A stretch of DNA of 64,000 bases, from assembly GCA_963674745.2 (NCBI GenBank), contig CAXXDV010000003.1, positions 128,001 to 192,000 of the forward strand. The letters run 5' to 3'. How positions within the stretch are numbered: the first letter of the stretch is position 1; each line of letters starts with the position of its first letter. Below the pieces are notes generated by a model, which saw nothing but the letters and a program-made list of their open reading frames with translations, made no database searches and was not told the DNA's origin. The translations under genes and the position numbers were made by a program. Positions 4,281 to 36,681 of this stretch are shown here, piece after piece. The stretch is from Desulfosudaceae bacterium (GTDB lineage: Bacteria; Desulfobacterota; Desulfobacteria; Desulfobacterales; Desulfosudaceae).

Positions 4281-4360
4281 TAAAAGGCCTTTCCGGACGC
4301 TAAGAATTGAGCCCGACGGTCGTAAAGCCCGGTGTTTTTGCAACCGGCTGCGTCATTACA

Positions 4361-10981: not shown

Positions 10982-13645
10982 CTATTTTTCATCTTCAGCC
11001 TCGTAGAGCTCCTTACCTTTTTCCAATGCCTCATCTTTCGTAAACGCAATGGGTTTGTAGCCGGCAATCGACAGAGCGGGATCATCAAGGCCGTCATAAA
11101 TAAGTTTGCCTATCTGATTTTCGTCAGTTGTTTCCCAGTAACAGTTACGGGCGGTTATCTCTTCGACGGTTTTCGCGTTCTGGTTGAACAGTTGAACCCC
11201 GGAGTTCTGCCTGATGACATTGCCGCCAAAGGACATTTTTCCGTTCATGAACACGCCACCGGTATTGCCGGTGCCGGAGGCTGTATTGTCTTCAATAATA
11301 TTGCCGCAGAACTTTTTGTTGTGCATGCTGATGCCCCAGTAATTGAGGAAGGCGCCGCCGCCCATTTTTCCGTTTATGCTGTTGCCGGCAATGATATTGC
11401 CATAGATCGTGCTGTTGGCTTCGACAAAAAGGCCGCCGCCCTTTCGCGCCTGGTTGTCGTTAATCAGATTTTCGTTAATACGCGAGAAACTGGCAAAGAT
11501 TCCACCACCTTTTGCTTCAGTGTGATTGTTGACGATTTTATTGTCGACCACTGCCGTTCGTGATGTCCAGATACCACCACCATCACCCTGACTGGTGTTG
11601 TTTTCTATGACATTGTTCCGGATATCGACCGCCACGTTGGTAAGATAACCATAGGCGAAGATACCGCCTCCATCAGCTGCGGTATTACCGGTTAAGCGAT
11701 TGTCATGAATAAGAACGTTTTTGCTGCCATAAACGTAAATACCGCCGCCGTCTGTATCGCTGACATTGTTTTGAATGGTGCAACCCTTGATGGTCGCGAT
11801 TGACTCTTTGATACGGATGCCGGTACCGCTGTTGTTTTTTATAATGCAGTCAACCACGTCGGTACCGTAACCATCCATCAGCAGGCCGCTGCCGTTTTCA
11901 ATAATACAACAGCGTAGCATGTTCTCTGTCTTGGCCGTGACGGCCTGATCCGCGACGTCCAGGCTGCGGCTTTCAAAAAATATTCGGCCCCAGGGACGCT
12001 GACGGTCTCCGGTAAACCGGATCATTTCCGCTTTGTTCCCGACAGCCGTTAATTGCCCGCGAATTCTGATGGTGGCCCCTTCATCCAGATACAATTCACT
12101 CCCGGGAACGATATCCAGCCGGGCACCTTCCAGAATCAGCAGGTTTCCGATAACCTTATAACGTTTTGCCTCGTTCTGTCCCAGGGTTGTATCGGTCTCG
12201 ATCGTTCCCCGTATCATACCCGGTTCGAGGGTTTCGGCAGTTACGCCGGTTGTCAGCTTTTGGATGTCCAATACGGCGTATGCCTTTTCACTCGGCAGCC
12301 GGCGATAGGGCTTCCAGCTGACCAGCCCGACCTCCGAATCTTCCAGCCAGTCGTAAACCAGTTTTTCAATAACATTTTCGTCGTCGGTTCCCCAGTAATT
12401 ACCGGTTGCCTTCAAGTCCGGTGAAAGGCTGTGAGACAGGAATTCAAGGGCGTATCCGCTCGATGCAATGATGTTGTTATCTTCCAGTGAAGGATTGCCG
12501 GACAGCGTGATGGCGGAATTGATGCCGGGTTGCAGGCCTTTGTTGCCGATCACTGTATTGCCCCGGATAATACCATCGCCCAGATGATAAAGCCCGGTAC
12601 CGTTGTCGGCGGCATTGTTCTCCAGCAGATTGTATTCCAGTTCGCAATTTTCAGAGTAAACGCCGCCGCCGTGATGGGATTGGTTACCGGACACGACATT
12701 GTTTTTCAACACCGAGCTGATGGTGAAGATGCCGCCGCCGAAAAGTTCGGACCGGTTATTACGAACGGTATTGCCCGTTACTTCAGACGCAAAGGCGAAT
12801 ATGCCGCCTGCCTTACGATCGCTGATGTTGTTTCTGACAACGTTATTTTTCACCACCACTTTACCGTCATTATAGGCAAAGGCATAAATACCGCCGCCCC
12901 CGTCACGGCCGCCGTGGGAAAAATTATCATAAACCTCATTGTCTTCGATGCGGACAGAAGAATCCGTATAGACATTGATGCCGGCGCCGTTTCCGGTTTC
13001 CGTCTGGCGCTCGGTAGAATTGTTGTATATCTTGTTTCCGGCAATAATGCCTGAGGCATATTCAAACTTGATAGCAGTTGAAATATGTTCCCGGAAAATG
13101 CACCGGGATATTTCTGCCCCGCTGGAATTGACGTTTATCCCTTTTCCGTATTCGATGATACAGTGTTCAAGCACGACACGGGAGTTTTCAGAATGCGGGT
13201 TTGGAATACAGTTGTTAAACTCGACCGCTTCCCAGTGTTCGCCTTCCTTTTCATGCGTAAAAACAATCGGTTCTGCTTCAGTCCCTCTGGCGATGACGAT
13301 CCCCTGGCAGCGGAACATGTCATCTTTTTTCAATATGATTTTTACGCCAGGGTCGATGGTCAGGGTAACCCCGGGAAGCACCAGTATGTTACCGGTGGCA
13401 TAAAAGGGACTGTCCTTTTTTTTCCAGTGTGTGTCCTTATAAACCAACTGATCATAATGGGGAATTTTCGGTTTCTTAATTTTAACGTAAAGATTCACCC
13501 AGAAGGAGTTGGCCACTTCGGCATAATCTTCATAGTTGTTCAGGTTGGTGACCTTGCTGAGAGAACAGGCCGAAAAACAGCATGTTAAAAACAGAAGAAC
13601 AGCAAGACGGATCAGGGGATTAGCGGTTAAAGGATAGTTTTTCAT
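10982..13645 (-). CDS. parallel beta-helix (pectin-lyase fold) lipoprotein with two tandem modules
   Basis: RBS CAGGAGG before ATG 13645; lipobox-like CFSA-C; many GGGIY/GGGIF repeats with Asn ladders; duplicated halves. Confidence 0.85.
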   Translation of the reverse strand: MKNYPLTANPLIRLAVLLFLTCCFSACSLSKVTNLNNYEDYAEVANSFWVNLYVKIKKPKIPHYDQLVYKDTHWKKKDSPFYATGNILVLPGVTLTIDPGVKIILKKDDMFRCQGIVIARGTEAEPIVFTHEKEGEHWEAVEFNNCIPNPHSENSRVVLEHCIIEYGKGINVNSSGAEISRCIFREHISTAIKFEYASGIIAGNKIYNNSTERQTETGNGAGINVYTDSSVRIEDNEVYDNFSHGGRDGGGGIYAFAYNDGKVVVKNNVVRNNISDRKAGGIFAFASEVTGNTVRNNRSELFGGGIFTISSVLKNNVVSGNQSHHGGGVYSENCELEYNLLENNAADNGTGLYHLGDGIIRGNTVIGNKGLQPGINSAITLSGNPSLEDNNIIASSGYALEFLSHSLSPDLKATGNYWGTDDENVIEKLVYDWLEDSEVGLVSWKPYRRLPSEKAYAVLDIQKLTTGVTAETLEPGMIRGTIETDTTLGQNEAKRYKVIGNLLILEGARLDIVPGSELYLDEGATIRIRGQLTAVGNKAEMIRFTGDRQRPWGRIFFESRSLDVADQAVTAKTENMLRCCIIENGSGLLMDGYGTDVVDCIIKNNSGTGIRIKESIATIKGCTIQNNVSDTDGGGIYVYGSKNVLIHDNRLTGNTAADGGGIFAYGYLTNVAVDIRNNVIENNTSQGDGGGIWTSRTAVVDNKIVNNHTEAKGGGIFASFSRINENLINDNQARKGGGLFVEANSTIYGNIIAGNSINGKMGGGAFLNYWGISMHNKKFCGNIIEDNTASGTGNTGGVFMNGKMSFGGNVIRQNSGVQLFNQNAKTVEEITARNCYWETTDENQIGKLIYDGLDDPALSIAGYKPIAFTKDEALEKGKELYEAEDEK

Positions 13646-13703
13646 GATAATATCCTCCTGAAAAGTCGATATAAACCGGATGACCGGGCAGGTGTTTCGG
13701 GCC

Positions 13704-13749
13704 CCCATCAGGCCTGATGGGTTTTAATCCGGTCAGGCCTGGCGGATTA
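13704..13749. repeat. two adjacent hairpins sharing a TCAGGCCTG core (REP-like)
   Basis: Perfect palindrome CCCATCAGGCCTGATGGG (13704-13721) and TAATCCGGTCAGGCCTGGCGGATTA (13725-13749). Confidence 0.65.
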
Positions 13750-13806: not shown

Positions 13807-16041
13807 TTAGTAATTACTGAAATCAAAAGTCTTAACTTCGCGTTGTTTCTCTTCTTCTTTTACGGGTTCGGGTACTTCTTCCATAAACATCAAAAAAAGC
13901 GTTGTCCGTTCCATCCAGGTCTCAGGGTCAGGGATGCGCGGCACCTTGTCCGGGGTGTAAAAAACATAGGGCATCCTGGTCTGGATACCGGCGTAAACTC
14001 CCGGATCCCGCAGAAAGTTGATGATCCATTGATATCTCAGCCGCTTTTTGGACAACATCAGGTCTATTGACATGTCTTCCAGCTTTTTGCCTTCAGGTGG
14101 TTCCCCGGTAAAATTGATCGGATGGCATTGCATGCACTTATCATTTCTGAACCGGTATTTACCCATTTCAAGGGTTTTATCATCATAATCTGTTTTGACC
14201 AGTTCCGGTTCATATGGGATGGTGGCCCCAGTCTGTTTGTCTTCTGACATGAGTGCGTGCAGGTACTCGATCAACAAAGTCAATTCGTTATAAGAAAAAT
14301 CAAAGGTCGGCATTCGGATCTGCAGCCAGGGCCTCATGGCGGTCGGTCGTTTCAGGTAGTTAAACAGCCAGTCGGGCTGAACTTTTTCAGGCTCATCGAT
14401 AATCATGGGCGGAACCATGGTTTTCCTGTCAAGGTACCCATCAATCCGGGGTTTAGCCGCATCTTTGAGCATCTGGTGGCACCCCTGGCAATTAAAATGT
14501 CGAAGCATCCAGTCGCCCCGTTCTTTCATGCGGTCCGACCCGGAGGCCCGGGCAATAAAGTTTTCGGGGGCATTCAGCAGCCGGTTATACAGATAGAAAA
14601 TTACCAGCTGGTCAAGTTCGTCCTCGGACATGACATAATTCGGCATATACATGGGCATGTCTTCGGTCTGATAAATCTCCGGTTTGGCGATTTTATTCCG
14701 CAGCCAGTCCCACTTGGTATGGGAAACATCCGAATAGCCGAAGGGCAATTCCTCCATGCGCTTGTCAGCGACATCCATAACGCTTACACCGACTTTGGCC
14801 GGGTCCGCTTTGTCCTTGATTTTGTGGCAGCCCAGGCACCCCAGGCTCTGAATCAGCGCTTTGCCCTCTTCGCTGTTGCCCGGTGGAACGTCTTCTTTTA
14901 TTAACGATTTAGCTTCGCTGTCCTTTAAAGAGGCCACATAGGCCGTCAGATTGTTAACATCATCCGCAGTCAACTCGACATTCGGCATCCAGGTGTCAGG
15001 ATTGACGGCTTTGGGGTTGTCAATCCAGTTATAGAGCCAGTCGGTTTTCATTTTTAAACCGGCATCGGACAGTAAGGGTACCCGGCGGGAATAGCCGGGC
15101 TTGTCGCGCTCCTGGCTGTGGCAGGCGATGCAGCCTTTATCTGTAAACAATTGACGTCCGGTTTTAACAACGCCTTTGGGGTTGTTGTCTTTCTCAAGCA
15201 TTAAAGCCTCATCAGGCAGTGAGTAGATATAGTCGGTAATATCCCGGATCTGTTCGGGACTGATTCTGAATTTCGGCATGAGCGTGGCCGGGCGGACCGC
15301 TTCCGGATTTTCGATCCATGTGGCCACCCAGTTCCGGTCTTGGATTTTTTTCGCCAACCCGGAGAAAGGTGCTGAATATTTTGGCAACTCTTCCATAACA
15401 TTGGCATCATGACATCCGTAGCACCCCATTTCTACAAAATTTGTCCTGCCTTGGGAAGCTTTTTCTGCGCCCTCGAGCCCGAAGACCACCTCATGACATT
15501 CAAGGCAGGTACTTTGCGCGTACTTTAAGGGCAGCCTGGGCAGTTCCCAGTTTTCTTCATGTCCGTGCGCTTTTTCGACGGTCAGGCCGACGCCCTGACC
15601 ATGATGGCACAGGGTACAGCCGAAATTATCAATTTTATGGGTTTTTAATATTTCCGGCGGATGGGCCTTGAGCGGGTTTTCTGAATCAGTGAAAAGGCTG
15701 TTTTTCATCCCGATATGGCAGGTCATGCACAGGTCACGGGTCTGTGATCCGGGCAGGAACACCTGCCGCATCTTGACGGCCTGTGACCGCTCCTGGTCGG
15801 CCTTCAGTTTCGCCCATTTTTTCAGGCTGATTTCATCACCGGCCTGTTCCGCTTCCTGGATTTTTACATTCAGTTTTTCAATATACCGGCTGTTATATTC
15901 AGCCTGATATTTTTTCCATTTGTTCCGGTTATTCTGTTCTCTTACCACGACGCCGATAATCGTCATTAGAATCAGCACAGAAACAACGCCAAACAGCACC
16001 CTTAACTTGAATTTCGCCTGGATAAATTTCGTCTTTTTCAT
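13807..16041 (-). CDS. membrane-anchored octaheme cytochrome c
   Basis: N-terminal TM helix; 8 CxxCH motifs (CMTCH, CTLCH, CLECH, CYGCH, CIACH, CLGCH, CQGCH, CMQCH); start overlaps the upstream stop. Confidence 0.92.
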   Translation of the reverse strand: MKKTKFIQAKFKLRVLFGVVSVLILMTIIGVVVREQNNRNKWKKYQAEYNSRYIEKLNVKIQEAEQAGDEISLKKWAKLKADQERSQAVKMRQVFLPGSQTRDLCMTCHIGMKNSLFTDSENPLKAHPPEILKTHKIDNFGCTLCHHGQGVGLTVEKAHGHEENWELPRLPLKYAQSTCLECHEVVFGLEGAEKASQGRTNFVEMGCYGCHDANVMEELPKYSAPFSGLAKKIQDRNWVATWIENPEAVRPATLMPKFRISPEQIRDITDYIYSLPDEALMLEKDNNPKGVVKTGRQLFTDKGCIACHSQERDKPGYSRRVPLLSDAGLKMKTDWLYNWIDNPKAVNPDTWMPNVELTADDVNNLTAYVASLKDSEAKSLIKEDVPPGNSEEGKALIQSLGCLGCHKIKDKADPAKVGVSVMDVADKRMEELPFGYSDVSHTKWDWLRNKIAKPEIYQTEDMPMYMPNYVMSEDELDQLVIFYLYNRLLNAPENFIARASGSDRMKERGDWMLRHFNCQGCHQMLKDAAKPRIDGYLDRKTMVPPMIIDEPEKVQPDWLFNYLKRPTAMRPWLQIRMPTFDFSYNELTLLIEYLHALMSEDKQTGATIPYEPELVKTDYDDKTLEMGKYRFRNDKCMQCHPINFTGEPPEGKKLEDMSIDLMLSKKRLRYQWIINFLRDPGVYAGIQTRMPYVFYTPDKVPRIPDPETWMERTTLFLMFMEEVPEPVKEEEKQREVKTFDFSNY

Positions 16042-16769
16042 ATCGAGAAATAGGGAGTAACAATAATATATTTAACATGAAAGAAAAGCCGGAGAACGAT
16101 TTTAATAATCGTTCCGAACATCAGCAGGATCATCACCATTGTCGTAAAATACCGGAAAGGCCCCAGGGTTTTGTAAAACTGTTTTTTAAGCAGGGCCGGC
16201 AGGCCGATGCCCAGTGTAAAATAGAGCACGACCAGGGTATAGCCCAGGATGGCGGGCAGGTTGACCAATTGTTCTTCAGCGTCCTTGGCAATGGACCAGT
16301 CCTCCCAGGGCCAGTAAAAGTGCCAGTTGGGGCCTCTGAAAAACTGGCCGAAAACGATCAGCACGAACCACAGGGTGTAACCGACCATAAACATTGAAAC
16401 GGACAGTTTCCGGTCTTTAAGGTTATATTCGCCAACGCCTTTGGGATTGGGGTCAATATAAGGAATGATCATCAACCCGACAATGATCAGTCCGGGTAAC
16501 ATGACACCGGCGATCCAGGGATCGAAATAAACCAGCATTTCCTGCAGGCCGATGAAATACCAGGGCGCCTTGGCGGGATTTTCCGTCCAGTTGGGATCGG
16601 CGATTGCTTTTAAAGGCGCGTCAATTCCCATTGACCAGATGGAAAGAACCATGATCGCTATAAGAATCGCAATGAACTCTCTGGAAACCAGATCCGGGAT
16701 GGTGAAGACATATTCCTCTTTCAATTCACCACCTGATTGTTCCATTTGTTTGTTTTCAGCCGTTTCCAT
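16038..16769 (-). CDS. cytochrome b6f subunit IV-like protein (C-terminal part of split cytochrome b)
   Basis: ADPNWTENPAKAPWYF (PEWY-equivalent), PYIDPNP, about 5 TM segments. Confidence 0.88.
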   Translation of the reverse strand: METAENKQMEQSGGELKEEYVFTIPDLVSREFIAILIAIMVLSIWSMGIDAPLKAIADPNWTENPAKAPWYFIGLQEMLVYFDPWIAGVMLPGLIIVGLMIIPYIDPNPKGVGEYNLKDRKLSVSMFMVGYTLWFVLIVFGQFFRGPNWHFYWPWEDWSIAKDAEEQLVNLPAILGYTLVVLYFTLGIGLPALLKKQFYKTLGPFRYFTTMVMILLMFGTIIKIVLRLFFHVKYIIVTPYFSI

Positions 16770-16778
16770 TTTATTTCC

Positions 16779-17540
16779 TTACAGGGGCCTTGAAATTCCG
16801 CCGTCTTTTCTGATGCGCCAGAAGTGAACGGCCATCAAGAGGACACAGGCGACCGGCAACAGGACACAATGAAGCACGTAGAAACGCAGCAAGGCGTTGC
16901 CGCCCACCTGGTTGTCACCCAGCAGCAGAAACTGCATGTCGTTGTATTGCGTAATGCCGAGCAATTGGTGAAAGGGCCCTTCGTTTCCCAGAAAGGGCGT
17001 GGCCGCTGCCATCTTGGTGCCCACCGTGATGGCCCAGAAGGCAATCTGGTCCCAGGGCAGCAGATAACCGGTAAAGCTGAGCAGCAGCGTTATGACCAGC
17101 AGAAATACCCCGATGACCCAGTTGAACTCTCTGGGTGGTTTATAAGAGCTGGTCAGAAAAACGCGAAGCATGTGCAGCATCACCAGGATAACCATGGCAT
17201 GAGCCGCCCAGCGGTGCATATTTCTTAAAAACATGCCGAACAGCACCGTGTGCTCAATCAGCTTCATGTCCAGATAGGCATATTCCGGAACCGGCCGGTA
17301 ATAAAACATGAGCAGAATACCGGTAATGGTTTCGATGATGAACATCAGCATGGTCAGGCCGCCCAGGCAGAACGTGAACCGGAATTTCAGCGCCGAGGCT
17401 TTTATCTGCACCGGATGAAGATGCATAAAAACATTGGCGGTAACGGCCAGGGCCTTGTTCCTGGGTGTATCTGTAAACTTGTGCCTGAAAATCGAGCGCC
17501 AGGCCGCGCTTTCCGTAATTTTATTCAGCTTCATGTCCAA
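16779..17540 (-). CDS. cytochrome b6-like protein (N-terminal part of split cytochrome b)
   Basis: FCLGG (heme ci Cys), [37 protein letters not shown]; start may be TTG 17540 or ATG 17534. Confidence 0.93.
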
Positions 17541-18296
17541 TTAATCCGCCAGGGTGTTTTTCAGATAAGTAAAGTCGGCGGTGATAAAGCGGTCAAGGAT
17601 ATTGATCAGATCAACATAAAACACCACAGCCGCGTCAGGTTCGGCTATTTCACTTACGACACCCTGCATCCGTTCTGCCAGGCTTGATGCCCATTTGACC
17701 GTATGGTGTTCCATAAAATCTTTCTGGGCCAGAAAATAACCATTTGTTTCCTTCTCGTCCTGCATGGCCCTTAAGGTTAAAAAAGCCAGGTAATGCATGA
17801 ATTCCAGTTCGTAGGTAATATGGTCGGGCCGGTCTTCCTGGGGGCCTTCTTTATAACTCAGCCCGAAATTGTTATAAAAGCGGATCAAATCTTCGAAAAT
17901 GGCCCGGCGATTGGCGTCTTTATTGTATTTTCCTTCAATCAGGGGGCAGGGCGGATCTCCCGGCCCGGCTTCGAACAAACGGATAAATTCAGCTTCAACA
18001 TCATCATCACTCAGGTTTTCGGGGAAGACCAGCGCCTTTTTTTCCTTGTCGGTGAGTTCATACGCAAAGGGCAGTGCTGAAATGATGTCGGTCAGACCGT
18101 CAACCAGTTCGCCATTCCGGACAAAATTCCGGAAAGCCTCGTCCGGGTAACGGAAAACATCGGCCATTAAGGCATACATGTTACTTCTTGCCGCAGTTTC
18201 TTTTTCATTGTCGGTTTTCAATGTGTCGGTTTGAAAAACCTCGCTGAAGACATCACCGTTCTGCTCGACTGTTTTTTTCTCCGCAACTTGATTCAT
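17541..18296 (-). CDS. type II DMSO-reductase family maturation chaperone (EbdD/TorD-like delta subunit)
   Basis: RPDHITYELEFMHYL motif; position after the beta subunit. Confidence 0.9.
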   Translation of the reverse strand: MNQVAEKKTVEQNGDVFSEVFQTDTLKTDNEKETAARSNMYALMADVFRYPDEAFRNFVRNGELVDGLTDIISALPFAYELTDKEKKALVFPENLSDDDVEAEFIRLFEAGPGDPPCPLIEGKYNKDANRRAIFEDLIRFYNNFGLSYKEGPQEDRPDHITYELEFMHYLAFLTLRAMQDEKETNGYFLAQKDFMEHHTVKWASSLAERMQGVVSEIAEPDAAVVFYVDLINILDRFITADFTYLKNTLAD

Positions 18297-18351
18297 TGGC
18301 TTATCCTGTAAGGGATTATCGTATTTTACCGATTTGTTTATCGGAGGGATT

Positions 18352-18384
18352 TATCCGCCGACCGGAAAGACCGGCCGGCGGATA
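18352..18384. other. intergenic GC-rich stem-loop after the beta subunit gene
   Basis: TATCCGCCG-a-CCGG-aaaga-CCGG-c-CGGCGGATA; no U-tract on the coding strand. Confidence 0.6.
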
Positions 18385-18395
18385 GAGAAAGCTTA

Positions 18396-19559
18396 TTATT
18401 TTGTTCCCGGCCGGTCATAGGTCACGCCTTTGGGCTGTACCCGGTTCATGATGGCGGGATCTTTATTGAACTGGTCGAACATCTTGGTCCATTCCTTGGC
18501 AATCAGGATTTCCATGAGTTCGGAACGGCCGCCGTTTCTGACCTTTTCCAGTTCCTTATTCATGATATCCAGGGCGTTGTCCACTTCCGGGCCGAACAGG
18601 TAACGCAGGTATTCCCGGGGGATTCTCGGTTTGGACGTGTCCACCTTTCCGTTTGTGTCCAGTCTGGGCGGGGCAAACGGTGGAACGTAAAAGACGTTGG
18701 GGTTGGTGCCGAACTCGGCATGAAGCGGCAGAGCGACTTTCCACACCTTGACCAGTTTGTAAATGAGGCTTTCGGGTTTGTCCACGAAACCGACCCAGCG
18801 GACCCTGCCCGTACACTGCCGGGCACAGGCATTGGCTACGTTTTGTTCCAGCCGGGGATAGCAGAAAATGCATTTCATGCTTTTTTCGGTGATGAAGTTA
18901 AAATAGATCACCTTATAGGGACATGCTTCCAGGCAGAACCGATAGCCCTTGCAACGATCCTGGTCAATGACGACCGCACCGTCTGATTCCCGCTTATAAA
19001 TGGCGTTTCTCGGGCAGGCATCCAGACAGGCCGGGTAGGCGCAATGGTTACAAATTCTGGGCAGGTAAAAATAGAACGAGTTGGGATAGGTGCCGGCACC
19101 CTGGTCTTCATCCCAGTTCATGCCCCATTCCGGGATGCTGCCGTCTTCCTTGTTTCTGGCCTGGAGGTGCACTTCCCCGGCTTTGTTGTTGACAACCTCG
19201 TTCCAGTTGTAATCCCAGTCATCTCCAAACTCTTTTTTGGTGGGATGCTTGCCGCGGACCGGTTCCATGACCTCGCCGCCGAATTTTACCTTGTAGCCGC
19301 CGCCCATCTTCTGCCAGTCTTTGGGGGATCCCAAACCGGGCATGGTGTTGACTTTGTTCCACCACATGTATTCACGACCTTCAAAACTGGTCCACAGGGT
19401 TTTGCAGGCCATGGAACAGAGCTGGCAGCCGATGCATTTGTTCAGGTCCATGACCATGCCGACCTGGTGATCACATTTTCGAAGATTCTCCTTGGTCGCC
19501 TCAAAGGCCTGGGCCAGTTCTTTTTCCCTGTCTGTAAGTTTTTTTTCTTCAACAGCCAT
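18396..19559 (-). CDS. EBDH-family Fe-S beta subunit (three 4Fe-4S, one 3Fe-4S)
   Basis: DLNKCIGCQLCSMAC, CNHCAYPACLDAC, CKGYRFCLEACP, CIFCYPR..CARQC, PLHAEFGTNPNVFYVPP. Confidence 0.95.
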   Translation of the reverse strand: MAVEEKKLTDREKELAQAFEATKENLRKCDHQVGMVMDLNKCIGCQLCSMACKTLWTSFEGREYMWWNKVNTMPGLGSPKDWQKMGGGYKVKFGGEVMEPVRGKHPTKKEFGDDWDYNWNEVVNNKAGEVHLQARNKEDGSIPEWGMNWDEDQGAGTYPNSFYFYLPRICNHCAYPACLDACPRNAIYKRESDGAVVIDQDRCKGYRFCLEACPYKVIYFNFITEKSMKCIFCYPRLEQNVANACARQCTGRVRWVGFVDKPESLIYKLVKVWKVALPLHAEFGTNPNVFYVPPFAPPRLDTNGKVDTSKPRIPREYLRYLFGPEVDNALDIMNKELEKVRNGGRSELMEILIAKEWTKMFDQFNKDPAIMNRVQPKGVTYDRPGTK

Positions 19560-19618
19560 GGGTATATCTCCTTATATTAAATTTTGTTGTTCGCAAAAAG
19601 GGTATCTGCCGGCCGTTG

Positions 19619-20284
19619 TCAAGCTTCGATTTCCAGGAGCCGCCATTCTTTACTGAAAGCCTTGACACCGCCCCGTTCTCCATTGGCCCCTTCCCAGACG
19701 GCGAAACCGAAACCGATTTTTCCGCCCGGCGCCAGGTCAACGGTCTCTTCGCCGGCACGGTTGGCTTTTAAGGGGCGACCCATGACCACATACCATTTTC
19801 CGTTTTCCCATTTAGAGTTCGAGGTAATGGATGATTTTTCCGTATACAGCGAGGTGGAAAGACCATGGGCCACCTGGTTTTTGGGCTTTTCATCAAAGTC
19901 GGGTCGCCAGTACCAGGCGTTGGTCGGATAATCCTTGGTGCCCATTTCGGTGATAGGTGTTTTTTCGATGTCTTTCATCGGCATCAGCAGGGCGATGCCG
20001 TCGGCGAAGATATTGATGTCTTCAATTTTCAGATTGGGTTTGGCGCTTTCCCATTCCAGATAAAAGAAAATCGAGTCGGCGTTGTGAACGGATTTTAACC
20101 AGACCTTTTTCACCGCCCCGATTTTTTCTTCATCATAAACGCCCTTGATGTACGGAGATGGCTGGTTGGCCAGCGGAGTGGCCGCGGTCTCGATCACCTC
20201 CGTGCCTGATTTCCAGATTGTGTTTGCGCAGTTCAGCAGGTCCTTGGTGGATGCTGAAACTTTTTTACAGATGATATTTGCCAT
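19619..20284 (-). CDS. EBDH-family heme b gamma subunit
   Basis: DOMON-like EbdC pattern: EMG (Met ligand), NAWYW, FAVWEGANGERGGVK (Lys ligand). Confidence 0.93.
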   Translation of the reverse strand: MANIICKKVSASTKDLLNCANTIWKSGTEVIETAATPLANQPSPYIKGVYDEEKIGAVKKVWLKSVHNADSIFFYLEWESAKPNLKIEDINIFADGIALLMPMKDIEKTPITEMGTKDYPTNAWYWRPDFDEKPKNQVAHGLSTSLYTEKSSITSNSKWENGKWYVVMGRPLKANRAGEETVDLAPGGKIGFGFAVWEGANGERGGVKAFSKEWRLLEIEA

Positions 20285-20337
20285 TTGACACCTCTATATT
20301 ATTTTAAAATATTGTTAGTCCGCATCTTCTGCTCCGG

Positions 20338-23313
20338 TCAAATTTTGGCTACTTCCACGGCGATACCGCGGTCAACGGGCTGCGCGCACCAGTTCCAGCG
20401 CCAGTAGCGGAGATGGCCGTAGTCATTGATCAGGTCAAGCCATTTGATCATACCCGGAATGGCTGTATCGTAGCTCTTCCAGCCGGGAAACATGAACGGT
20501 TCCCAGGCATGGTAAATAATGACCTGTCCCGGCAGGGCCGCGCCTTTGTTCGGTCTGGCCGCGGGCGTTACCTTGACATGGATTTTGAAATCATCAAAAT
20601 CGTTGAAGACATGAACCAGTTCACCATCCTTGATGCCCCGGCTTTCGGCATCCTCTTTGCTCATGAACATGAACGGCCGGCCCTGGTGGGTTCGCAGGAG
20701 CTGTTCATTACTGATCCAGATGGAATGAATACTCCAGCGCTGATGTCCGCTTGTCAGCCGCAGAGGGAAGTTGCCGCCGATTTGGGGGTTGTCCTTGTGG
20801 ACCGGCAGCTGTTCTTCGGCTTCCAGGAACCAGGGATGATCGATGTAGAACTGAATTCGCCGGTTGTATGTGGGGTAGGGTACCTTCTTTTCACCGGTAT
20901 GCCATGTCAGCGGAATGATCGGTTCATCGGGCTTGATATCCGTGGCCAGGTTCATGGTGACCGGGTCAAAAATGGACACATCGACAAAGCGGACGATACC
21001 TTCTTTGCGCATGAATTTCAGGTCGGTCCCCGGCGGCAGGTTACCCAGCAGAACACTGGACTGCAGGGCGTCGTCCATGACTTCCTCAAAATTATCGGCC
21101 CCCATCCGCTGCCAGTCGCCGAAATTTTCAAGGGTTACGTTGGCATCCTTGTCCCGGACGGAAAAATGTTTTAAGAATTGCATGTACTCTTTCTGCGGAG
21201 GCGTTTTGGGCGGGAAGGTGAGTTTTCCCTTCTTTTTGGCCGCCTCTTCTACTTTCTGGCCCAGCATGCGGCAGATTTCCCATTCCGTCTTGGATTCTCC
21301 GATCGGCTTGACCGCTTCATCGGTCAGCGTCAGCCAGGGAACATGAGGTGTCGGGAAACGGGTGTCAGTTTTTTCGTAAAAACCGGCACAGGGCAGGGCA
21401 TAGTCGCCGTAAAGCAGGGTGGTTGTCCAGCGGGTTTCAAACCCGAAGATGAGTTTATATTTTTTCCACAGAGAGTGGAGAATGTTCTTATTCCAGCCTC
21501 TGTTTTTACGGGCCGGGTTGGTGCCCATCCAGGCGTAAACAGTCGGTGTCTGGTCCGGGGCGGGCTTGACATAACCGTCCCACCAGCCTTTACCGATCGC
21601 TTCGTCATAGTACTCTTTAAACTCCCTTTTCATGGTCGGGCAGTGCCAGGATTTGTTGTCCCAGGCTTTCTTGTAGTCGGAGTGGTTATAGTAGAGATGG
21701 GCGGGAATGGTATAGTTGACCAGGTTGCGGTCAAGCACCCGTTCCTGCTCGATGGAACACATTTCCAGTGAACGCGTGGGATCCTCCTGTTTTTTCCGGT
21801 TGAAGATACCCTGCATAATAGGCAGTTGCGTTCTCAAGTTCTCAAGGCCGATGGTTTGTTTGAAAATCTGGGTAAAGGCCCCTTCAAACAGGGATTCGTT
21901 CCAGCCCCGGATACCGCAGCCTTTCTTACCGTAACTGCCGGTCAGGGCCAGTATCAGGCACATAACCCGTTCAATCAGGTCGCCATGATAATACTTGGGT
22001 GAGTTCCAGCCCACCATGACCTGAATACCGCCGCTGGCCTTGTAACATTTTTCGGCCAGCCGTCGAATGGTGTCGGGATTGGTGCCGCAGCTTTGGGATG
22101 CTTGTTCCGGTTTGTAATCTTTGTTGAGCAGATCTTTCAGGTTCTGGAATACCGGCCGGACGGAAACGGTTTTGCCGTCCAGTAATTTCACTGTATAGGT
22201 TCCTTCCAGGGCCGGGTCACACGGCAGCTTCAGTGTCTCAAGCGGGGCCTTGACGGCTTCATTTTTCTTGCTGTCCCAGAAACAGAACTGATCCGCCCGG
22301 CCGCGTTTGTCAATGTCGGCGGCACTTAAGAACCGGTTGTTGTCGGTTCTGACCAGCAGCGGCAGGTCGGTCTGTTCCTTGACAAAGGGAACATCCACCC
22401 AGCCCTTTTCAATGAGGATCTGACAGACGCCCAAGCCCAGGGCCGCATCCGATCCCATTTCCACCGGGATATATTCATCGGCATGCATGGTGCTGGGGTT
22501 ATAGTCCGGTGCGATGGAAACGATATCCGCGCCGTTGTATCTGGCTTCTGAAATAAAATGGTAGGAAGGAATCCGGGTATAAACCGGGTTCATGTGCCAG
22601 ATCAGGAGCAGTTTGCCGAAATACCAGGCGTCAACTGAATCCATGAACTGGAATTTGCCGAAGGTTTCGTAAATGCCGCGGTTGAAGTCGCCGATGGTGG
22701 AGTCCAGGTCCAGAATGGTGGCGCCCAGGCCGACAAACAACCGGTGCACGGCCATGACATGAATATAACCGCCGTTGCCGGGGCCGCTTTCAAAAATAAT
22801 GGATTCCGGTCCCTGATCGGCCAGACCATCGACAATGCCTTCGGCGATTTCGGTCAAACACTGATCCCAGGATATCCGTTTCCATTTGCCGCTGCCCCTG
22901 CCGCCGGTCTGCTTCATGGGGTATTTGAGCCGGTCGGGGTTATACATCTGAATGCTGTAGGAGGCGCCTTTCTGGCATCCCCGGGGATTGAAATCCGGGC
23001 CGGAAGCATCGATAACCGGATATTTCGCGGCCTGTTCTTCTCTGAAAACCACCCCGTCCTTGGCATAGACGCGCCACAGGCAGTTGCCCGGGTAGCAGTC
23101 CACCAGATGGGTGCCGTAGGTGACTTGATCCCAGGTCCATTCTTTCCGGTGAAGATCTTCCCACCCGGCGTATTTCCAGTCCTCGATGACTTTTTCCGTG
23201 GCATTGGCAATGCCGTTTCCTCCCAGAAAGCCTAGAGAATTCAAGGACAGCAACGCCACCGTCGCGCTTGTTCCCTTTAAGAAAGTCCTTCGGGAGATTC
23301 TCATTTCCTTCAT
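20338..23313 (-). CDS. EBDH-family molybdopterin alpha subunit; putative alkane/alkyl-chain methylene hydroxylase (AhyA/EbdA/S25dA-like)
   Basis: Tat signal SRRTFLK; THLVDCYPGNC..NPRGCQKG His-ligated FS0; IGDF Asp Mo ligand; HQRWSIHS. Subfamily assignment is from recall, not a search. Confidence 0.93.
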   Translation of the reverse strand: MKEMRISRRTFLKGTSATVALLSLNSLGFLGGNGIANATEKVIEDWKYAGWEDLHRKEWTWDQVTYGTHLVDCYPGNCLWRVYAKDGVVFREEQAAKYPVIDASGPDFNPRGCQKGASYSIQMYNPDRLKYPMKQTGGRGSGKWKRISWDQCLTEIAEGIVDGLADQGPESIIFESGPGNGGYIHVMAVHRLFVGLGATILDLDSTIGDFNRGIYETFGKFQFMDSVDAWYFGKLLLIWHMNPVYTRIPSYHFISEARYNGADIVSIAPDYNPSTMHADEYIPVEMGSDAALGLGVCQILIEKGWVDVPFVKEQTDLPLLVRTDNNRFLSAADIDKRGRADQFCFWDSKKNEAVKAPLETLKLPCDPALEGTYTVKLLDGKTVSVRPVFQNLKDLLNKDYKPEQASQSCGTNPDTIRRLAEKCYKASGGIQVMVGWNSPKYYHGDLIERVMCLILALTGSYGKKGCGIRGWNESLFEGAFTQIFKQTIGLENLRTQLPIMQGIFNRKKQEDPTRSLEMCSIEQERVLDRNLVNYTIPAHLYYNHSDYKKAWDNKSWHCPTMKREFKEYYDEAIGKGWWDGYVKPAPDQTPTVYAWMGTNPARKNRGWNKNILHSLWKKYKLIFGFETRWTTTLLYGDYALPCAGFYEKTDTRFPTPHVPWLTLTDEAVKPIGESKTEWEICRMLGQKVEEAAKKKGKLTFPPKTPPQKEYMQFLKHFSVRDKDANVTLENFGDWQRMGADNFEEVMDDALQSSVLLGNLPPGTDLKFMRKEGIVRFVDVSIFDPVTMNLATDIKPDEPIIPLTWHTGEKKVPYPTYNRRIQFYIDHPWFLEAEEQLPVHKDNPQIGGNFPLRLTSGHQRWSIHSIWISNEQLLRTHQGRPFMFMSKEDAESRGIKDGELVHVFNDFDDFKIHVKVTPAARPNKGAALPGQVIIYHAWEPFMFPGWKSYDTAIPGMIKWLDLINDYGHLRYWRWNWCAQPVDRGIAVEVAKI

Positions 23314-23410
23314 AGTGCCCCCTTTAATTGCATTTTAGGTCCTTGGTCTGATTCGTTCCCTTTTTGACAAACTGCAACAGTAATAAATTTTTTGCGCCTT
23401 TTTTAATAAT

Positions 23411-23701
23411 TTATGTTACCGGCAGCAGCTGAATCGCGTTCCAGGGGCAGCCGGTCAGCATGGTTCCTTTTGAACCGCTGCTGACGCAGGCGCCGCAACC
23501 GACACAGTTGCCGCTGTCGACCGACATTTTTTTAAACGGATAATTTTCCTCATCATTCACCAGGTGAAGGGCATCAAATTTACAGAAGACCTGGCAGACG
23601 GGAACGCCTCCGCAGCCCGTACACCAGTCCAGAATCCGGGCGATTCTTTTGACCCGTGTACGTTTGGCCGGTTTTTCTTTTGTTGTAGCCGTATTCAACA
23701 T
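23411..23701 (-). CDS. 2x[4Fe-4S] ferredoxin-like protein without signal peptide
   Basis: CTGCGGVPVCQVFC and CVGCGAC...CP; start overlaps the Rieske stop. Confidence 0.85.
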   Translation of the reverse strand: MLNTATTKEKPAKRTRVKRIARILDWCTGCGGVPVCQVFCKFDALHLVNDEENYPFKKMSVDSGNCVGCGACVSSGSKGTMLTGCPWNAIQLLPVT

Positions 23702-24273
23702 TACGTTACTTCGATATAGATTTTCTGGTCTTCAAATTCCTGCTTGGAATACACCAGGGCCGTATCCACGATTACATTGCCTTCGCTGTCAAGGGTAATA
23801 TGGTGCCTGTCAAGCGGGCGCGGGGCAGGCCCGGCGAATTCCACGCCGTTGGAGTGAAATTCGCTGCCGTGGCAGGGGCATTTAAAAATATTCAGGTCTT
23901 CGAACCAGTTGACCGTGCAGCCCAGATGGGTGCAACGGGCAAAAAGAGCGAAAACCCGGTCTTTGTCCCTGACCACAAAGAAACGGTGATTTTTTTTGAA
24001 ACGGGAGTCGATAAAGATGACACCGTACTGGTCGGGTTTTTTGTCGGTGATAAAATCGTTAACCTGGCCGATAACATACTTGCTGGGGGGGTGAAACACC
24101 ACCGAAGGGTATAAAAACTTCAACCCCTGATACATTCCCGCCCCCAGGCCTGTAAAGACAATCCCCCAACCGGCGACTGATATACCCTTGTTGAGAAATT
24201 CCCTTCTGTTCAGGGTGGTTTTCCCTTCCAGTTGATCCGCTGTTACATTGCCTGAATTCGAGCTTTCTGACAT
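23701..24273 (-). CDS. Rieske [2Fe-2S] subunit of a Rieske/cytochrome b complex
   Basis: NRREFL Tat motif plus TM helix; CTHLGC and CPCHGS; GPAPRPL. Confidence 0.95.
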   Translation of the reverse strand: MSESSNSGNVTADQLEGKTTLNRREFLNKGISVAGWGIVFTGLGAGMYQGLKFLYPSVVFHPPSKYVIGQVNDFITDKKPDQYGVIFIDSRFKKNHRFFVVRDKDRVFALFARCTHLGCTVNWFEDLNIFKCPCHGSEFHSNGVEFAGPAPRPLDRHHITLDSEGNVIVDTALVYSKQEFEDQKIYIEVT

Positions 24274-24331
24274 TTTTTACTCACTTCTTATAAATATTGT
24301 TTAGTTGTCAGCGTCTGTGAGACATTGAAAA

Positions 24332-24550
24332 CTACTCTTTTTTTAAAAAGTTCCGAAACATTTCAAAAATAAAGGCCGCCACAAACATCATGCCGGTACC
24401 TTCAGCGTAGGGGACCCAGAAATAATAATGAATGTTTTCCCACATGGTCGTGTGCATGTTGTATCGCCAGTAGCAGTAATTGACGACGATAAAATGCAGC
24501 AGCGTAATGATTACGGCGGCAACAAGACTTCTTAAAATTTTTTTGATCAT
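24332..24550 (-). CDS. small two-TM membrane protein, first gene of the cluster
   Basis: 72 aa, strong RBS (AAGGGGGAG), two hydrophobic segments. Confidence 0.7.
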   Translation of the reverse strand: MIKKILRSLVAAVIITLLHFIVVNYCYWRYNMHTTMWENIHYYFWVPYAEGTGMMFVAAFIFEMFRNFLKKE

Positions 24551-24996: not shown

Positions 24997-25563
24997 ATGA
25001 TCTGCGGGAGAACGCGGGAAGAATTGCTGACCGAGATCCGGAATTTCCATGGTTTTGTGGCGCCCGGGCTGTTGATCGGCGCTTTTATGGTTGACCTGAC
25101 CTATGACTGTCTGGAAAAACAAGGCGAGTATGATGCCATTGTGGAAACTCGGAGCTGCCTGCCGGATGCCATTCAGATATTGACCCCATGTACCATCGGC
25201 AACGGTTGGCTGAAGATTCTTGATCTCGGCAAATTCGCTATTACCATGTATGACCGGAATACCTTTGAAGGATGCAGAACATGGCTTGACCTGCAAAAGG
25301 CCCAGGCGCATCAGACGGTTTATAAATGGTTCAACGGGCTGGTTTCAAAAAAAGACCTGCCCATCGAAGTTTTGCAGGAAGCCATTTTTGAAGCGGGTAA
25401 GGCCATTCTTTCTACAGCCAGGGTGAAAGTCGTTGAATACGCCGAACGCCAGAAAAAAGGCGAGATTCGGTTATGTGAAAATTGTAATGAAGCCTATCTG
25501 GCGGCCCAGGGGACACCCTGCCTGGCCTGCCAGGGCAAGACCTACTATCAGAAAATCAATTAA
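24997..25563 (+). CDS. FmdE-family protein with C-terminal zinc finger
   Basis: FHGFVAPG, ETRSCLPDAIQILTPCTIGNG, CENC..CLAC. Confidence 0.9.
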   Translation: MICGRTREELLTEIRNFHGFVAPGLLIGAFMVDLTYDCLEKQGEYDAIVETRSCLPDAIQILTPCTIGNGWLKILDLGKFAITMYDRNTFEGCRTWLDLQKAQAHQTVYKWFNGLVSKKDLPIEVLQEAIFEAGKAILSTARVKVVEYAERQKKGEIRLCENCNEAYLAAQGTPCLACQGKTYYQKIN

Positions 25564-27069: not shown

Positions 27070-27175
27070 TTTTTTCTCCTTGCGGCCTGGTCCGGATATT
27101 TCATGAAAATAAGGAACAGGCTTGATAAAAAAAAGTTCTGTTCAAGTTGTGTTTTCAACCCCGGATCAGCACAGG

Positions 27176-32700: not shown

Positions 32701-32703
32701 GAT

Positions 32704-36621: not shown

Positions 36622-36681
36622 TATATCTCCTTATCCGTTTTCTATAACAGGCCGTTAGGCCTTTGTTGCGCTTTTTTCTCC

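Follow-up and report, generated by a model that had tools for sequence, protein, structure and literature searches.

A putative AhyA-type hydroxylase operon with its own Rieske/cytochrome b complex in a Desulfosudaceae bacterium

The locus described here raises the question of where a sulfate-reducing bacterium could send electrons released at high potential by a hydroxylase of the ethylbenzene dehydrogenase (EBDH) type. It lies in a window, meaning the whole stretch of DNA that was analysed, of 64,000 nt from a Desulfosudaceae bacterium (GCA_963674745.2, contig CAXXDV010000003.1, positions 128,001-192,000, forward strand) with a genome of 5.5 Mb. The thermodynamic problem, which the initial annotation of the locus had raised for sulfate reducers, is real for this host, given that its genome encodes DsrA (621 bits versus a cut-off of 393) and that neither a heme-copper oxidase (COX1) nor a NarG over the cut-off was found in it. 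COX1 was likewise not found in the genomes of Desulfosudis (Desulfococcus) oleivorans Hxd3 (3.9 Mb), G203 and G204, and none of five genomes, the host included, contains a NarG over the cut-off.

Gene content and conservation of the module

The operon lies wholly on the minus strand and has the gene order and coordinates (13807..24550) given in the initial annotation, from a 72-aa membrane protein (TM72) through Rieske, ferredoxin, alpha, gamma, beta, delta, b6 and subunit IV to an octaheme cytochrome c (Table 1; families were assigned by Pfam and NCBIfam profile searches of the predicted proteins). The abutting or overlapping junctions that had been pointed out are three in number: the Rieske and ferredoxin genes have one base in common, no nucleotide separates delta from b6, and there is a 4-nt overlap between subunit IV and cytochrome c; elsewhere the genes are 9 to 99 nt apart. 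A promoter-like site, the best on the minus strand, is located at 24677-24648. A 164-aa ORF (24817-25311, minus strand) was rejected as a gene, being antisense to the FmdE gene.

Table 1. Genes of the module and its flanks (positions in the window).
Feature	Position	Strand	Basis
MerR-family regulator, divergent from the operon	25579..26334	+	NCBIfam MerR-type matches
FmdE-domain protein with zinc finger, divergent	24997..25563	+	Pfam FmdE 1.7e-33, zf-Tbcl_FmdE
72-aa hydrophobic TM protein, operon gene 1	24332..24550	-	sequence
Rieske 2Fe-2S subunit, Tat-type RR motif	23701..24273	-	Pfam Rieske, b6f/bc1 Rieske models
96-aa 2[4Fe-4S]-type ferredoxin	23411..23701	-	Fer4_7; Fer4 dicluster
Alpha, AhyA-type Mo-bis-MGD catalytic subunit, Tat signal	20338..23313	-	Molybdopterin, Molydop_binding
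Gamma, heme b	19619..20284	-	Pfam EB_dh 3.4e-36
Beta, Fe-S clusters	18396..19559	-	TIGR03478 482.7 bits (cut-off 480.7)
Delta, NarJ/TorD-type assembly chaperone	17541..18296	-	TIGR03482 152.5 bits (cut-off 152.3); Nitrate_red_del
Split cytochrome b6	16779..17540	-	Cytochrome_B 1.1e-40; ExtP 281 bits (cut-off 290)
Subunit IV, C-terminal half of cytochrome b	16038..16769	-	Cytochrom_B_C, ExtQ
Membrane-anchored octaheme cytochrome c	13807..16041	-	multiheme and class I cytochrome c domains
908-aa lipoprotein, two NosD-like beta-helix domains	10982..13708	-	Pfam Beta_helix, NosD
MoeA molybdopterin molybdotransferase	9641..10939	-	NCBIfam MoeA models, ~1e-103 to 1e-105
Short-chain dehydrogenase (SDR)	8796..9605	-	SDR models
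Two adjoining acyl-CoA dehydrogenase-family (ACAD) genes, 503 aa and 372 aa	6033..8725	-	NCBIfam ACAD-family
Acyl-CoA ligase	4361..5950	-	ortholog in L113, 81% identity
MobB, molybdopterin guanine dinucleotide synthesis	3795..4343	-	TIGR00176 115 bits (cut-off 76)

An AhyA-type alpha is present in 11 of the 201 genomes sampled from the order, and a b6 ortholog (at least 77% identity) occurs in exactly those 11 genomes and, at this identity, in none of the other 190. The order from the Rieske gene to the beta-helix gene is retained in all nine non-orphan loci fetched from this survey, and 80 public contigs yielded 10 complete loci with matching gene order; hence, the layout is not a product of chance. 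The module occurs in MAGs outside the order as well. The separation of the Rieske gene from b6 by the Mo-enzyme genes, which the initial annotation had emphasized, holds for the window but is not universal, since Rieske and ferredoxin stand directly before b6 in two lineages (L037 and G201).

The conserved unit spans about 3795 to 26334, and the extent first assigned to the module was therefore too small, leaving out conserved genes downstream as well as the FmdE and MerR genes upstream. The MerR homolog adjoins the module in six of the nine non-orphan loci (identities of 38-78% in L102, L103, L105, L108 and L110, and a weaker 31% in L111 and L112), and the FmdE gene lies beside it in seven (L102, L103, L105 and L107-L110; 52-73%). 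The 72-aa protein, which has no family match in Pfam or NCBIfam and is weakly conserved (35-62%) in some loci, is possibly a small subunit. On the other side, the gene for the beta-helix lipoprotein, whose N-terminus is lipobox-like, directly follows the cytochrome c gene in all complete loci; an atlas search with this protein returned beta-helix/NosD clusters only. MoeA comes after the beta-helix gene in seven of the nine loci (49-73%). The SDR, which may act as alcohol dehydrogenase on the hydroxylated product, is found in L102, L105 and L107-L110 (62-77%); in L103 none was found adjoining the module. Orthologs of the ACAD pair follow the module in L102/L113, L103 and L105, and those of MobB are present in L104 and L113. 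Ketone carboxylation, as proposed, would call for an acetone-carboxylase-type gene; one was found in two of five genomes, and it is not conserved together with the module, a point against the reading preferred below.

The molybdenum enzyme and its relation to AhyA and EbdA

Comparison with solved structures supports the view, already expressed in the initial annotation, that alpha sides with the EBDH-type hydroxylases and not with the oxyanion reductases: it scores 740 bits with EbdA (2IVF), 428 with PcrA, 179 with NarG and 138 with NxrA. Among the NCBIfam models, TIGR03479 gives 882 bits, and the EbdA equivalog model gives 801 bits, below its cut-off of 2000. A tree of 109 alphas places 20 of the 24 bc-linked rows in one clade of 34 rows (support 100).

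The closest known system is the ahy cluster of strain Hxd3 (ABW66002-ABW66010), encoding a presumed alkane C2-methylene hydroxylase. The Hxd3 alpha, letter for letter WP_012173623.1, is the AhyA reference of Shou 2021, and the window alpha is 84% identical to it, in agreement with the likeness noted initially. Other identities are 86% for b6, 82% for beta and 62% for cytochrome c. The two genomes belong to one taxonomic family, and both clusters run in the order Rieske, ferredoxin, alpha, gamma, beta, delta, b6, subunit IV, octaheme c, beta-helix protein and MoeA. Judged by this identity of alpha and the matching gene order, the window cluster is an ortholog of the Hxd3 cluster in another genus of the Desulfosudaceae. 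The cluster is already public, under generic names in Hxd3, as had been suspected. The two differ in that an SDR gene stands between MoeA and the ACADs in the window, with none found there in Hxd3, and in a second alpha of the window genome. This paralog (81% identity) is an orphan without its own beta or gamma; no other close type II alpha was found in the host genome, in which gamma is the sole EB_dh gene.

Compared with EbdABCD of Aromatoleum aromaticum, the window shares the set of alpha, beta, gamma and delta, the Tat signal, and several cofactor ligands. As read from the alignment, alpha D209 corresponds to the Mo ligand Asp223 of EbdA and K440 to Lys450, whereas His192 and Asp485, residues with presumed functional roles in EbdA, are replaced by Pro and Leu, respectively, so that the chemistry may differ in detail. 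In gamma, the aligned positions of EbdC (2IVF_C) Met108 and Lys201 are occupied by Met114 and Lys208, and beta contains 16 Cys. In EbDH, Met/Lys ligation accompanies a heme b potential of +256 mV, the ethylbenzene/1-phenylethanol couple being at +30 mV. EbDH is thought to pass its electrons to a respiratory cytochrome c of the denitrifier and is not known to have a bc complex of its own.

The bc unit and related complexes

The Rieske protein carries the motifs CTHLGC and CPCHGSEF, with the S-x-F form in 16 of 18 orthologs. This 'SF' type is tied to potentials of 200-230 mV in Baymann 2012, that is, above the values usual for menaquinol oxidisers; the Rieske proteins from the unusual bc complexes of Kuenenia are similarly higher in potential. 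The ferredoxin, which the initial annotation did not consider as a probable part of the bc unit, always adjoins the Rieske gene, lacks a signal peptide and has eight Cys, all of them invariant across the 15 orthologs aligned. It is specific to the module, with exactly one strong match per genome in five of five genomes, always inside the module, and is likely part of the unit. In b6, His109/His123, His224/His239 and Cys58 (FCLGG, at the heme ci position) are invariant in 16 sequences, and the Qo-site motif of subunit IV is APWY, without Glu, in 16 sequences. The cytochrome c has an N-terminal hydrophobic stretch and eight CxxCH motifs, whose positions are conserved in 17 of 17 orthologs. The b/c proteins of the Geobacter Ext operon are homologs of the bc part (ExtP model, Table 1).

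Complexes of this kind are known from several other settings. The Rieske/cytochrome b complexes of Kuenenia stuttgartiensis (Kuste4569-4574 and Kustd1480-1485) likewise have a split b6 with the heme ci Cys, a multiheme c, an additional redox protein at the cytoplasmic side, and a Rieske potential above that expected in a menaquinone organism. However, an NAD(P) oxidoreductase serves as their extra subunit and bifurcation from quinol has been proposed, whereas the window encodes the 96-aa ferredoxin instead and the net flow proposed here leads to quinone. In another member of the Desulfobacterales (G139), Rieske, b6 (64% identity), subunit IV and multiheme c are followed by genes for a type II Mo enzyme (gamma, beta, delta and alpha) whose alpha is NxrA-like, of the Kuenenia type (1795 bits to 7B04_B), and not EBDH-like; ferredoxin and beta-helix homologs were not found at this locus with the window proteins. 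Uphill electron transfer by a bc complex has its precedent in iron and nitrite oxidisers, in which bc1 (for example from the petI operon of Acidithiobacillus ferrooxidans) is reversed by the proton motive force and lifts high-potential electrons to quinone. These organisms are aerobic chemolithotrophs with ubiquinone and a canonical bc1, and their operon is not known to encode a hydroxylase. It should be noted that linkage alone gives no direction of flow, because the related complexes (Ext; the NXR locus of G139) may well run forward.

Direction of electron flow and substrate

The best reading, held with middling confidence, is that the module encodes an EBDH-type alkane hydroxylase and a dedicated, reversed bc complex reducing menaquinone. 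It is based on the presence of DsrA without an oxidase or NarG, and on the Met/Lys ligands that gamma shares with the high-potential EBDH. The orthology to AhyA, the scores that place alpha nearest EbdA, the tight linkage of b6 and the other bc genes to alpha, and the 'SF'-type Rieske also speak for it. The Tat-exported periplasmic enzyme (alpha with Mo-bis-MGD, beta with Fe-S clusters, gamma with heme b) would use water to hydroxylate a C-H bond in a hydrophobic substrate, for which a long-chain n-alkane is the likeliest candidate, and two electrons would exit via the high-potential heme b of gamma. Since the sulfate-reducing host lacks a high-potential terminal acceptor, they would be routed to the membrane-anchored octaheme cytochrome c and on to the Rieske centre of the operon's own b6-type (heme ci) complex, with which the enzyme might form a stable supercomplex. 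Operating opposite to its usual direction, this complex would reduce menaquinone by drawing on a reversed Q cycle powered by the proton motive force and/or on low-potential electrons supplied by the ferredoxin on the cytoplasmic side. The alcohol would then be processed by the SDR, the two acyl-CoA dehydrogenases and the CoA ligase, whose conservation speaks for this reading, while MoeA, MobB and delta would build the cofactor. Proteomics of alkane-grown Hxd3 implicates the AhyA enzyme, according to Callaghan 2013, which cites a meeting abstract.

The opposite direction, in which a periplasmic terminal reductase for a high-potential oxyanion or organic acceptor is fed by menaquinol oxidation through the bc complex, octaheme c and gamma heme b, has parallels. 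Flow of this kind, to nitrate, is proposed in Baymann 2012 for the haloarchaeal Rieske/cytochrome b-Nar cluster, which also combines a type II DMSO-reductase-family enzyme and a periplasmic heme b subunit with Rieske/cytochrome b genes, but belongs to another cytochrome b lineage and, as described there, lacks a multiheme c and a ferredoxin. The NXR/Nar-type enzyme beside the related complex of G139, and the closeness of b6 to ExtP of the Geobacter selenite/tellurite operon, point the same way. We nevertheless consider forward flow very unlikely: alpha is far nearer to EbdA than to PcrA, NarG or NxrA, its ortholog is the protein reported from alkane-grown Hxd3, and the conserved SDR, ACAD and CoA-ligase genes suit catabolism and not respiration. 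A hydroxylase could also work without an uphill step if octaheme c were a hub that passes electrons to another acceptor (an extracellular metal oxide, a syntrophic partner, traces of O2 or a periplasmic reductase) and is itself fed from menaquinol by a forward bc complex. The module is indeed not confined to sulfate reducers, as four of the five genomes G201-G205, including the complete chromosome G203, lack a DsrA over the cut-off, and G201, with a distant version of the module, carries three heme-copper oxidase genes; moreover, MtrC/DmsE-type multiheme models match the cytochrome in its N-terminal part. Yet the window host and Hxd3 showed neither oxidase nor NarG, no genes for an outer-membrane conduit turned up in the conserved unit, and the strict co-occurrence of b6 with alpha in the order is hard to square with a purely general respiratory role, which makes such a hub improbable.

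Different in kind is the proposal that the electron logic is as in the preferred reading, with reversed flow into menaquinone, and that the substrate is an isoprenoid, the side chain of a steroid or hopanoid, or a different lipid, orphan alphas adding specificities on a shared beta-gamma pair. The orphan alpha together with the single EB_dh gene would fit, as would the weak matches of the paired ACAD genes and the ligase to steroid-type models, the further lipid-catabolic genes in the window, and the occurrence of the clade's alpha copies in Poribacteria-labelled MAGs (L035 and L063). No steroid ring-degradation genes were seen within the window, however, and the close identity of alpha to the Hxd3 protein, which has been linked to growth on alkanes, also argues against another substrate, which we regard as unlikely.

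Contigs from four runs of one marine-sediment metatranscriptome study fall on alpha, gamma, beta, delta, b6, Rieske, cytochrome c and the beta-helix gene, and bridge the gamma/alpha and b6/delta junctions. They are weak evidence for the preferred reading, and RNA libraries such as theirs can hold DNA. The published ahyA primers match the Hxd3 gene without mismatches (gene positions 1378 and 1843) and the window gene with three mismatches each. The host genome also contains about five times as many genes for PFL-like glycyl-radical enzymes as that of Hxd3.

The operon and the family of its putative hydroxylase

The ahy-type operon comprises ten genes, each confirmed with Pfam and NCBIfam (see the table), and their order is the one read in the initial annotation. 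The abutting or overlapping junctions described there were found at three places (one base common to the Rieske and ferredoxin genes, abutting delta and b6 genes, and a 4-nt overlap between the subunit IV and cytochrome c genes), the other junctions being gaps of less than 100 nt. The unit also exceeds the extent first given, as seven more genes follow on the same strand, separated by 17 to 98 nt. Directly before the first gene is the best promoter-like match of the minus strand; it is a consensus match only, and the promoter/terminator scan, which returns only such matches (30 where 19 were expected, and 35 where 26 were expected), was used solely for this site. A 164-aa ORF was rejected as a gene because it is antisense to the FmdE gene, whose opposite frame is what its "homologs" elsewhere represent.

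Features of the operon, its surroundings and related loci (window coordinates unless a genome and contig are named)
Feature	Position	Strand	Characteristics
Operon, ten genes	13807-24550	minus	
72-aa hydrophobic protein (TM72)		minus	first gene of the operon
Rieske protein		minus	motifs CTHLGC, CPCHGSEF
Ferredoxin, 96 aa		minus	eight Cys
Alpha, molybdopterin subunit, 991 aa		minus	Tat signal
Gamma, heme b subunit		minus	EB_dh
Beta, four-cluster subunit		minus	TIGR03478 above cut-off
Delta, NarJ-type chaperone		minus	TIGR03482 above cut-off
Cytochrome b6, split		minus	Pfam/NCBIfam
Subunit IV		minus	Pfam/NCBIfam
Cytochrome c, 744 aa, membrane-anchored		minus	eight CxxCH motifs
Seven downstream genes		minus	908-aa lipoprotein (two NosD-like beta-helix domains), MoeA, short-chain dehydrogenase, two of the acyl-CoA dehydrogenase family, acyl-CoA ligase, MobB
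908-aa lipoprotein (first of these)	10982-13708	minus	
FmdE-domain protein and MerR regulator			upstream, divergent from the operon
164-aa ORF (rejected)	24817-25311	minus	
Two adjoining DUF364/DUF4213 genes	26341-28000	minus	"putative heavy-metal chelation"; beside the MerR/FmdE pair
Lipid-related neighbourhood	32092-45963		includes a TetR regulator and a YihG-type acyltransferase
Neutral-ceramidase-like protein	34585-36621		in the lipid neighbourhood
2-Hydroxyacyl-CoA dehydratase/benzoyl-CoA reductase type pair	36767-39099		in the lipid neighbourhood
Second MoeA	39096-40310		in the lipid neighbourhood
SCP-x-type thiolase and thiolase-like genes	43004-45963		in the lipid neighbourhood
Second (orphan) alpha, genome of the window	G000:C1:1746830-1749802 (L009:8831-11809)		81% identical to the window alpha
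Nearest PFL-like copy, genome of the window	G000:C3:114649-116544		about 11.5 kb before the window
Locus L120, Desulfobacterales	G139:C40:1-14000		NxrA-like alpha
Locus L121	G072:C277:10400-30300		related bc complex

Comparison with solved structures places alpha with the EBDH type, as had been annotated: it scores 740 bits over its full length against EbdA (2IVF), versus 428 against the perchlorate reductase PcrA, 179 against NarG and 138 against NxrA, and its closest similarity is thus not to an oxyanion reductase among the solved PcrA, NarG and NxrA. It has the features of type II DMSO reductase alphas (a Tat signal, the N-terminal His/Cys FS0 motif and the Asp Mo ligand), with D209 aligned with Asp223, the Mo ligand of EbdA; Lys450 of EbdA is also kept, and the motifs SRRTFLK, HLVDCYPGNC and TIGDFN are present in 16 of the 17 orthologs. 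Particular functional roles are assigned to His192 and Asp485 of EbdA, positions that, read by eye from the structure alignment, are Pro and Leu in alpha. The score on TIGR03479 (882 bits) is below the cut-off of 985. Alpha is not EbdA itself, as the EbdA equivalog NF042978 gives 801 bits where the cut-off is 2000; the EbdA model matches all 20 representative alphas of the wider clade at 507-909 bits. The accessory subunits form the type II family set of a beta with four Fe-S clusters, an EB_dh heme b gamma and a NarJ-like delta. Gamma scores 126 bits on Pfam EB_dh (cut-off 33) and, on TIGR03477, 134.6 where the cut-off is 169.85, and its Met114 and Lys208 are aligned with the EbdC ligands of the high-potential heme b.

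The initial annotation had noted a likeness to the alpha of Desulfosudis oleivorans Hxd3, a member of the same family, and had suggested that the cluster might already be annotated in genomes of this kind. Both points are correct: the window alpha is 84% identical to the Hxd3 protein WP_012173623.1 (ABW66004), which is the AhyA reference of Shou et al. 2021, and the Hxd3 cluster is public under generic names, its accessions following the order of the window (ABW66002 Rieske, 66003 ferredoxin, 66005 gamma, 66008 cytochrome b, 66009 subunit IV, 66010 cytochrome c). In the survey of the order, the genome treated here as that of Hxd3 (G067) encodes an alpha with exactly this protein sequence. The two alphas belong to one tree clade and their operons have equal synteny. 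The window cluster is therefore a further member, from a different genus, of the known but uncharacterised Hxd3 ahy cluster. In the account of Shou et al. 2021, ahyA clusters apart from ebdA, cmdA and S25dA. The published ahyA primers 1377for and 1843'rev have three mismatches each in the window and none in the Hxd3 gene, where they fall exactly at the positions given by their names. A literature search did not find biochemical proof of n-alkane C2 hydroxylation with water oxygen for any AhyABC member. It should be noted that the presence of the enzyme in alkane-grown Hxd3 has been reported (Callaghan 2013, citing a meeting abstract).

Conservation of the putative hydroxylase and its bc complex

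Alpha is encoded in 11 of 201 genomes of the order, the genome of the window included; among them are all three other genomes of its family. Neighbourhoods were fetched for every match of this survey. All nine non-orphan loci have the order Rieske, ferredoxin, alpha, gamma, beta, delta, b6, subunit IV, octaheme c and beta-helix gene, mostly with MoeA next; the two other copies of alpha stand alone. Within the order, b6 at 77% identity or more was found only in the same 11 alpha-bearing genomes. In this survey b6 and alpha strictly co-occur, and the non-orphan hydroxylase genes are always accompanied by a specific Rieske/b6/octaheme complex together with a specific ferredoxin.

The association extends across Desulfobacterales and into MAGs labelled "uncultured bacterium" or Deltaproteobacteria. 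Among 80 public contigs, 15 have bc genes beside alpha (ten with the complete set, the other five being cut by contig ends), and the rest (65) comprise short contigs, orphan copies and arrays of several more distant alphas (at most 50% identity), the latter from MAGs labelled Chloroflexota, Myxococcota or Binatia. A FastTree phylogeny was built from 109 alpha sequences, after removal of those with less than 85% query cover, of ORFs shorter than 850 aa and of duplicate contigs. Of its 24 bc-linked rows, 20 fall in a single clade of 34 rows (support 100). The other four are tandem alphas of a single distant MAG (locus L082 on G201:C13, "uncultured bacterium"), 35-39% identical to the window alpha, in an array of gamma, beta, delta and the four alphas followed by Rieske, ferredoxin and b6. 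This MAG also has 54 narG-model match pieces; most lie in ORFs about 950-1200 aa long, pointing to many more alpha-like genes. New here are the strict co-occurrence of b6 and alpha, the ferredoxin and the beta-helix lipoprotein as proteins specific to the module, the occurrence of the module outside Desulfobacterales and a sister cassette linked to a nitrite oxidoreductase-type alpha (locus L120).

In the vicinity of the orphan alpha in the genome of the window there are none of the beta, gamma, delta or bc genes. Its neighbours encode a GntR regulator and a FecR-domain protein, and genes for an IS91-type transposase and an integrase lie at a distance of about 7 kb. Only one EB_dh gene is present in the genome, and the orphan presumably shares the beta and gamma of the module. 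The genome of the same genus (G129) also carries an orphan alpha (79% identity).

The bc complex and a proposed route to menaquinone

The alkane activation of Hxd3-type sulfate reducers, which does not involve fumarate addition, has been an open question for more than 20 years (Callaghan 2013). An EBDH-type Mo hydroxylase needs an oxidant far above the respiratory chain of a sulfate reducer, and its association with the bc complex and the ferredoxin narrows the problem of electron disposal to some ten defined proteins. The substrate couple of EbDH is at +30 mV, with Mo(VI/V) and the exit heme b near +256 to +259 mV, and the enzyme works only with high-potential acceptors (Hagel et al. 2021). 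Menaquinone has a potential near -70 mV; by our own arithmetic from literature values, two electrons passing from heme b to menaquinone cost about 63 kJ, if the heme b of the module keeps the EbDH potential. The genome of the window (5.5 Mb, 99.96% complete) encodes a DsrA well above cut-off, and the search of it returned no heme-copper oxidase, no NarG above cut-off and no close type II alpha other than the orphan paralog; in the Hxd3 genome, neither a heme-copper oxidase nor a NarG above cut-off was found. Of five further module-bearing genomes, reached via their loci, one has DsrA above cut-off, and the complete chromosome G203 has neither DsrA above cut-off nor an oxidase. The distant MAG with tandem alphas (G201) has three heme-copper oxidase genes.

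The complex itself is of the heme ci-type Rieske/b6 kind, with the motifs CTHLGC and CPCHGS, a split b with subunit IV, and a c-type cytochrome subunit. In b6, His109/123 and His224/239 (13- and 14-residue spacings) and Cys58 at the ci position are invariant in 16 sequences. The Qo motif of subunit IV is APWY, lacking the Glu of PEWY, and is kept among the orthologs; PEWY variants without Glu occur in menaquinol oxidisers. The complex has a periplasmic multiheme arm and a Rieske protein of the "SF" type, for which Baymann et al. give 200-230 mV, versus 120-160 mV for typical menaquinol oxidisers. The ferredoxin has exactly one strong match in each of five genomes, always within the module. We count it with the bc unit rather than with the hydroxylase, since it keeps its place between Rieske and b6 in the loci that are arranged differently (L037 and that of G201).

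As in the initial annotation, the simplest reading is an uphill route into menaquinone, because the host is a sulfate reducer with nothing above menaquinone and the operon supplies a complete quinone-reactive complex; we give this reading an about even chance. Electrons would pass from Mo through the Fe-S clusters to heme b, octaheme c and Rieske, and from there uphill to menaquinone, and the proton motive force could supply the energy by reversing the Q cycle. Alternatively, the energy could come from a low-potential electron of the module's own cytoplasmic ferredoxin, when reduced: this electron would travel through heme ci, bH and bL and be joined at the Qo site by the electron from C-H hydroxylation, which would arrive through the gamma heme b, octaheme c and Rieske, to give menaquinol. 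It would require the ferredoxin to be an n-side subunit of the heme-ci b6 complex acting as a quinone-reducing electron confurcase, which we regard as improbable. A complex prediction for ferredoxin, b6 and subunit IV from alignment input scored 0.01 (mark 0.32), which speaks neither for nor against binding. The bc complexes of Kuenenia likewise combine a redox subunit on the cytoplasmic side with multiheme c subunits, and their Rieske centres lie at +303 and +335 mV; the bifurcation proposed for these anammox Rieske/cytochrome b complexes would be mirrored, in reverse, by confurcation in the module. If true, confurcation would enable strict anaerobes to use a Mo hydroxylase in need of an oxidant at about +250 mV without a high-potential terminal acceptor, and would draw little, if anything, from the proton motive force. 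Either the uphill or the confurcating route, if verified, would be a new coupling of C-H activation to low-potential respiration, and would provide a better marker set than ahyA alone for anaerobic hydrocarbon hydroxylation in sediments and reservoirs.

Three cases argue against inferring the direction of flow from the linkage. The b6 protein is close to the ExtP model of a Geobacter operon. A related bc complex is found in the sister cassette of another genome of Desulfobacterales (L120), which encodes Rieske, a b6 64% identical to that of the window, subunit IV, an 833-aa multiheme c, gamma, beta, delta, an unknown 341-aa protein and a 1148-aa alpha; unlike that of the module, this alpha is NxrA-like (1795 bits to Kuenenia nitrite oxidoreductase NxrA). 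In haloarchaea, a Rieske/cytochrome b complex is clustered with a periplasmic Nar, for which forward flow has been proposed (Baymann 2012). Complexes of this kind are therefore partners of periplasmic type II Mo enzymes in general. The linkage alone does not set the direction, which is decided by the substrate couple. For the ahy module, operation in the oxidation direction is favoured by its hydroxylase-type alpha, by its catabolic neighbours and by the report of the enzyme in Hxd3 grown on alkanes. The tie between the hydroxylase and the bc complex is one of genetic linkage, and the stable supercomplex of the initial annotation is putative. Our literature search returned no statement tying the Hxd3 hydroxylase to its bc genes or to reverse electron transport, and an earlier one may be in print. 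A 2016 review by Heider and colleagues reportedly depicts the Hxd3 operon and may discuss such a coupling.

A further related bc complex, with a b6 65% identical to that of the window, is found at L121, where an EB_dh-like gamma and a 652-aa protein with a CuA/NosZ-C-terminal-like domain lie nearby; no alpha was seen within the 20 kb examined.

Possible expression in sediments and genomic surroundings

Most module genes have contigs 88 to 99% alike to them in four metatranscriptome runs, all from the same marine-sediment study; some of these contigs span the gamma/alpha, b6/delta and Rieske/TM72 junctions. As RNA libraries can hold DNA and such contigs are no proof of a single transcript, this suggests only weakly that the module is expressed in close relatives. 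DNA-run shares below 0.2 were left out of any habitat statement.

The two beta-helix domains of the 908-aa lipoprotein have similar end motifs, ...YWGTDDENVIEKLVYDWLED... and ...YWETTDENQIGKLIYDGLDD...; the atlas search returned only generic NosD/beta-helix clusters, and Pfam gave no functional assignment either. An acetone-carboxylase type protein (Hydantoinase_B) was considered as a conserved ketone-carboxylation partner and dropped, as it was found in two of five genomes only (those of the window and G202, and not in those of Hxd3, G129 and G203). Any link between the DUF364/DUF4213 pair and the handling of Mo or W is conjecture. The genome of the window has 12 PFL-like matches, corresponding to about ten glycyl-radical enzyme genes, versus two in Hxd3, and the organism may also use fumarate addition.
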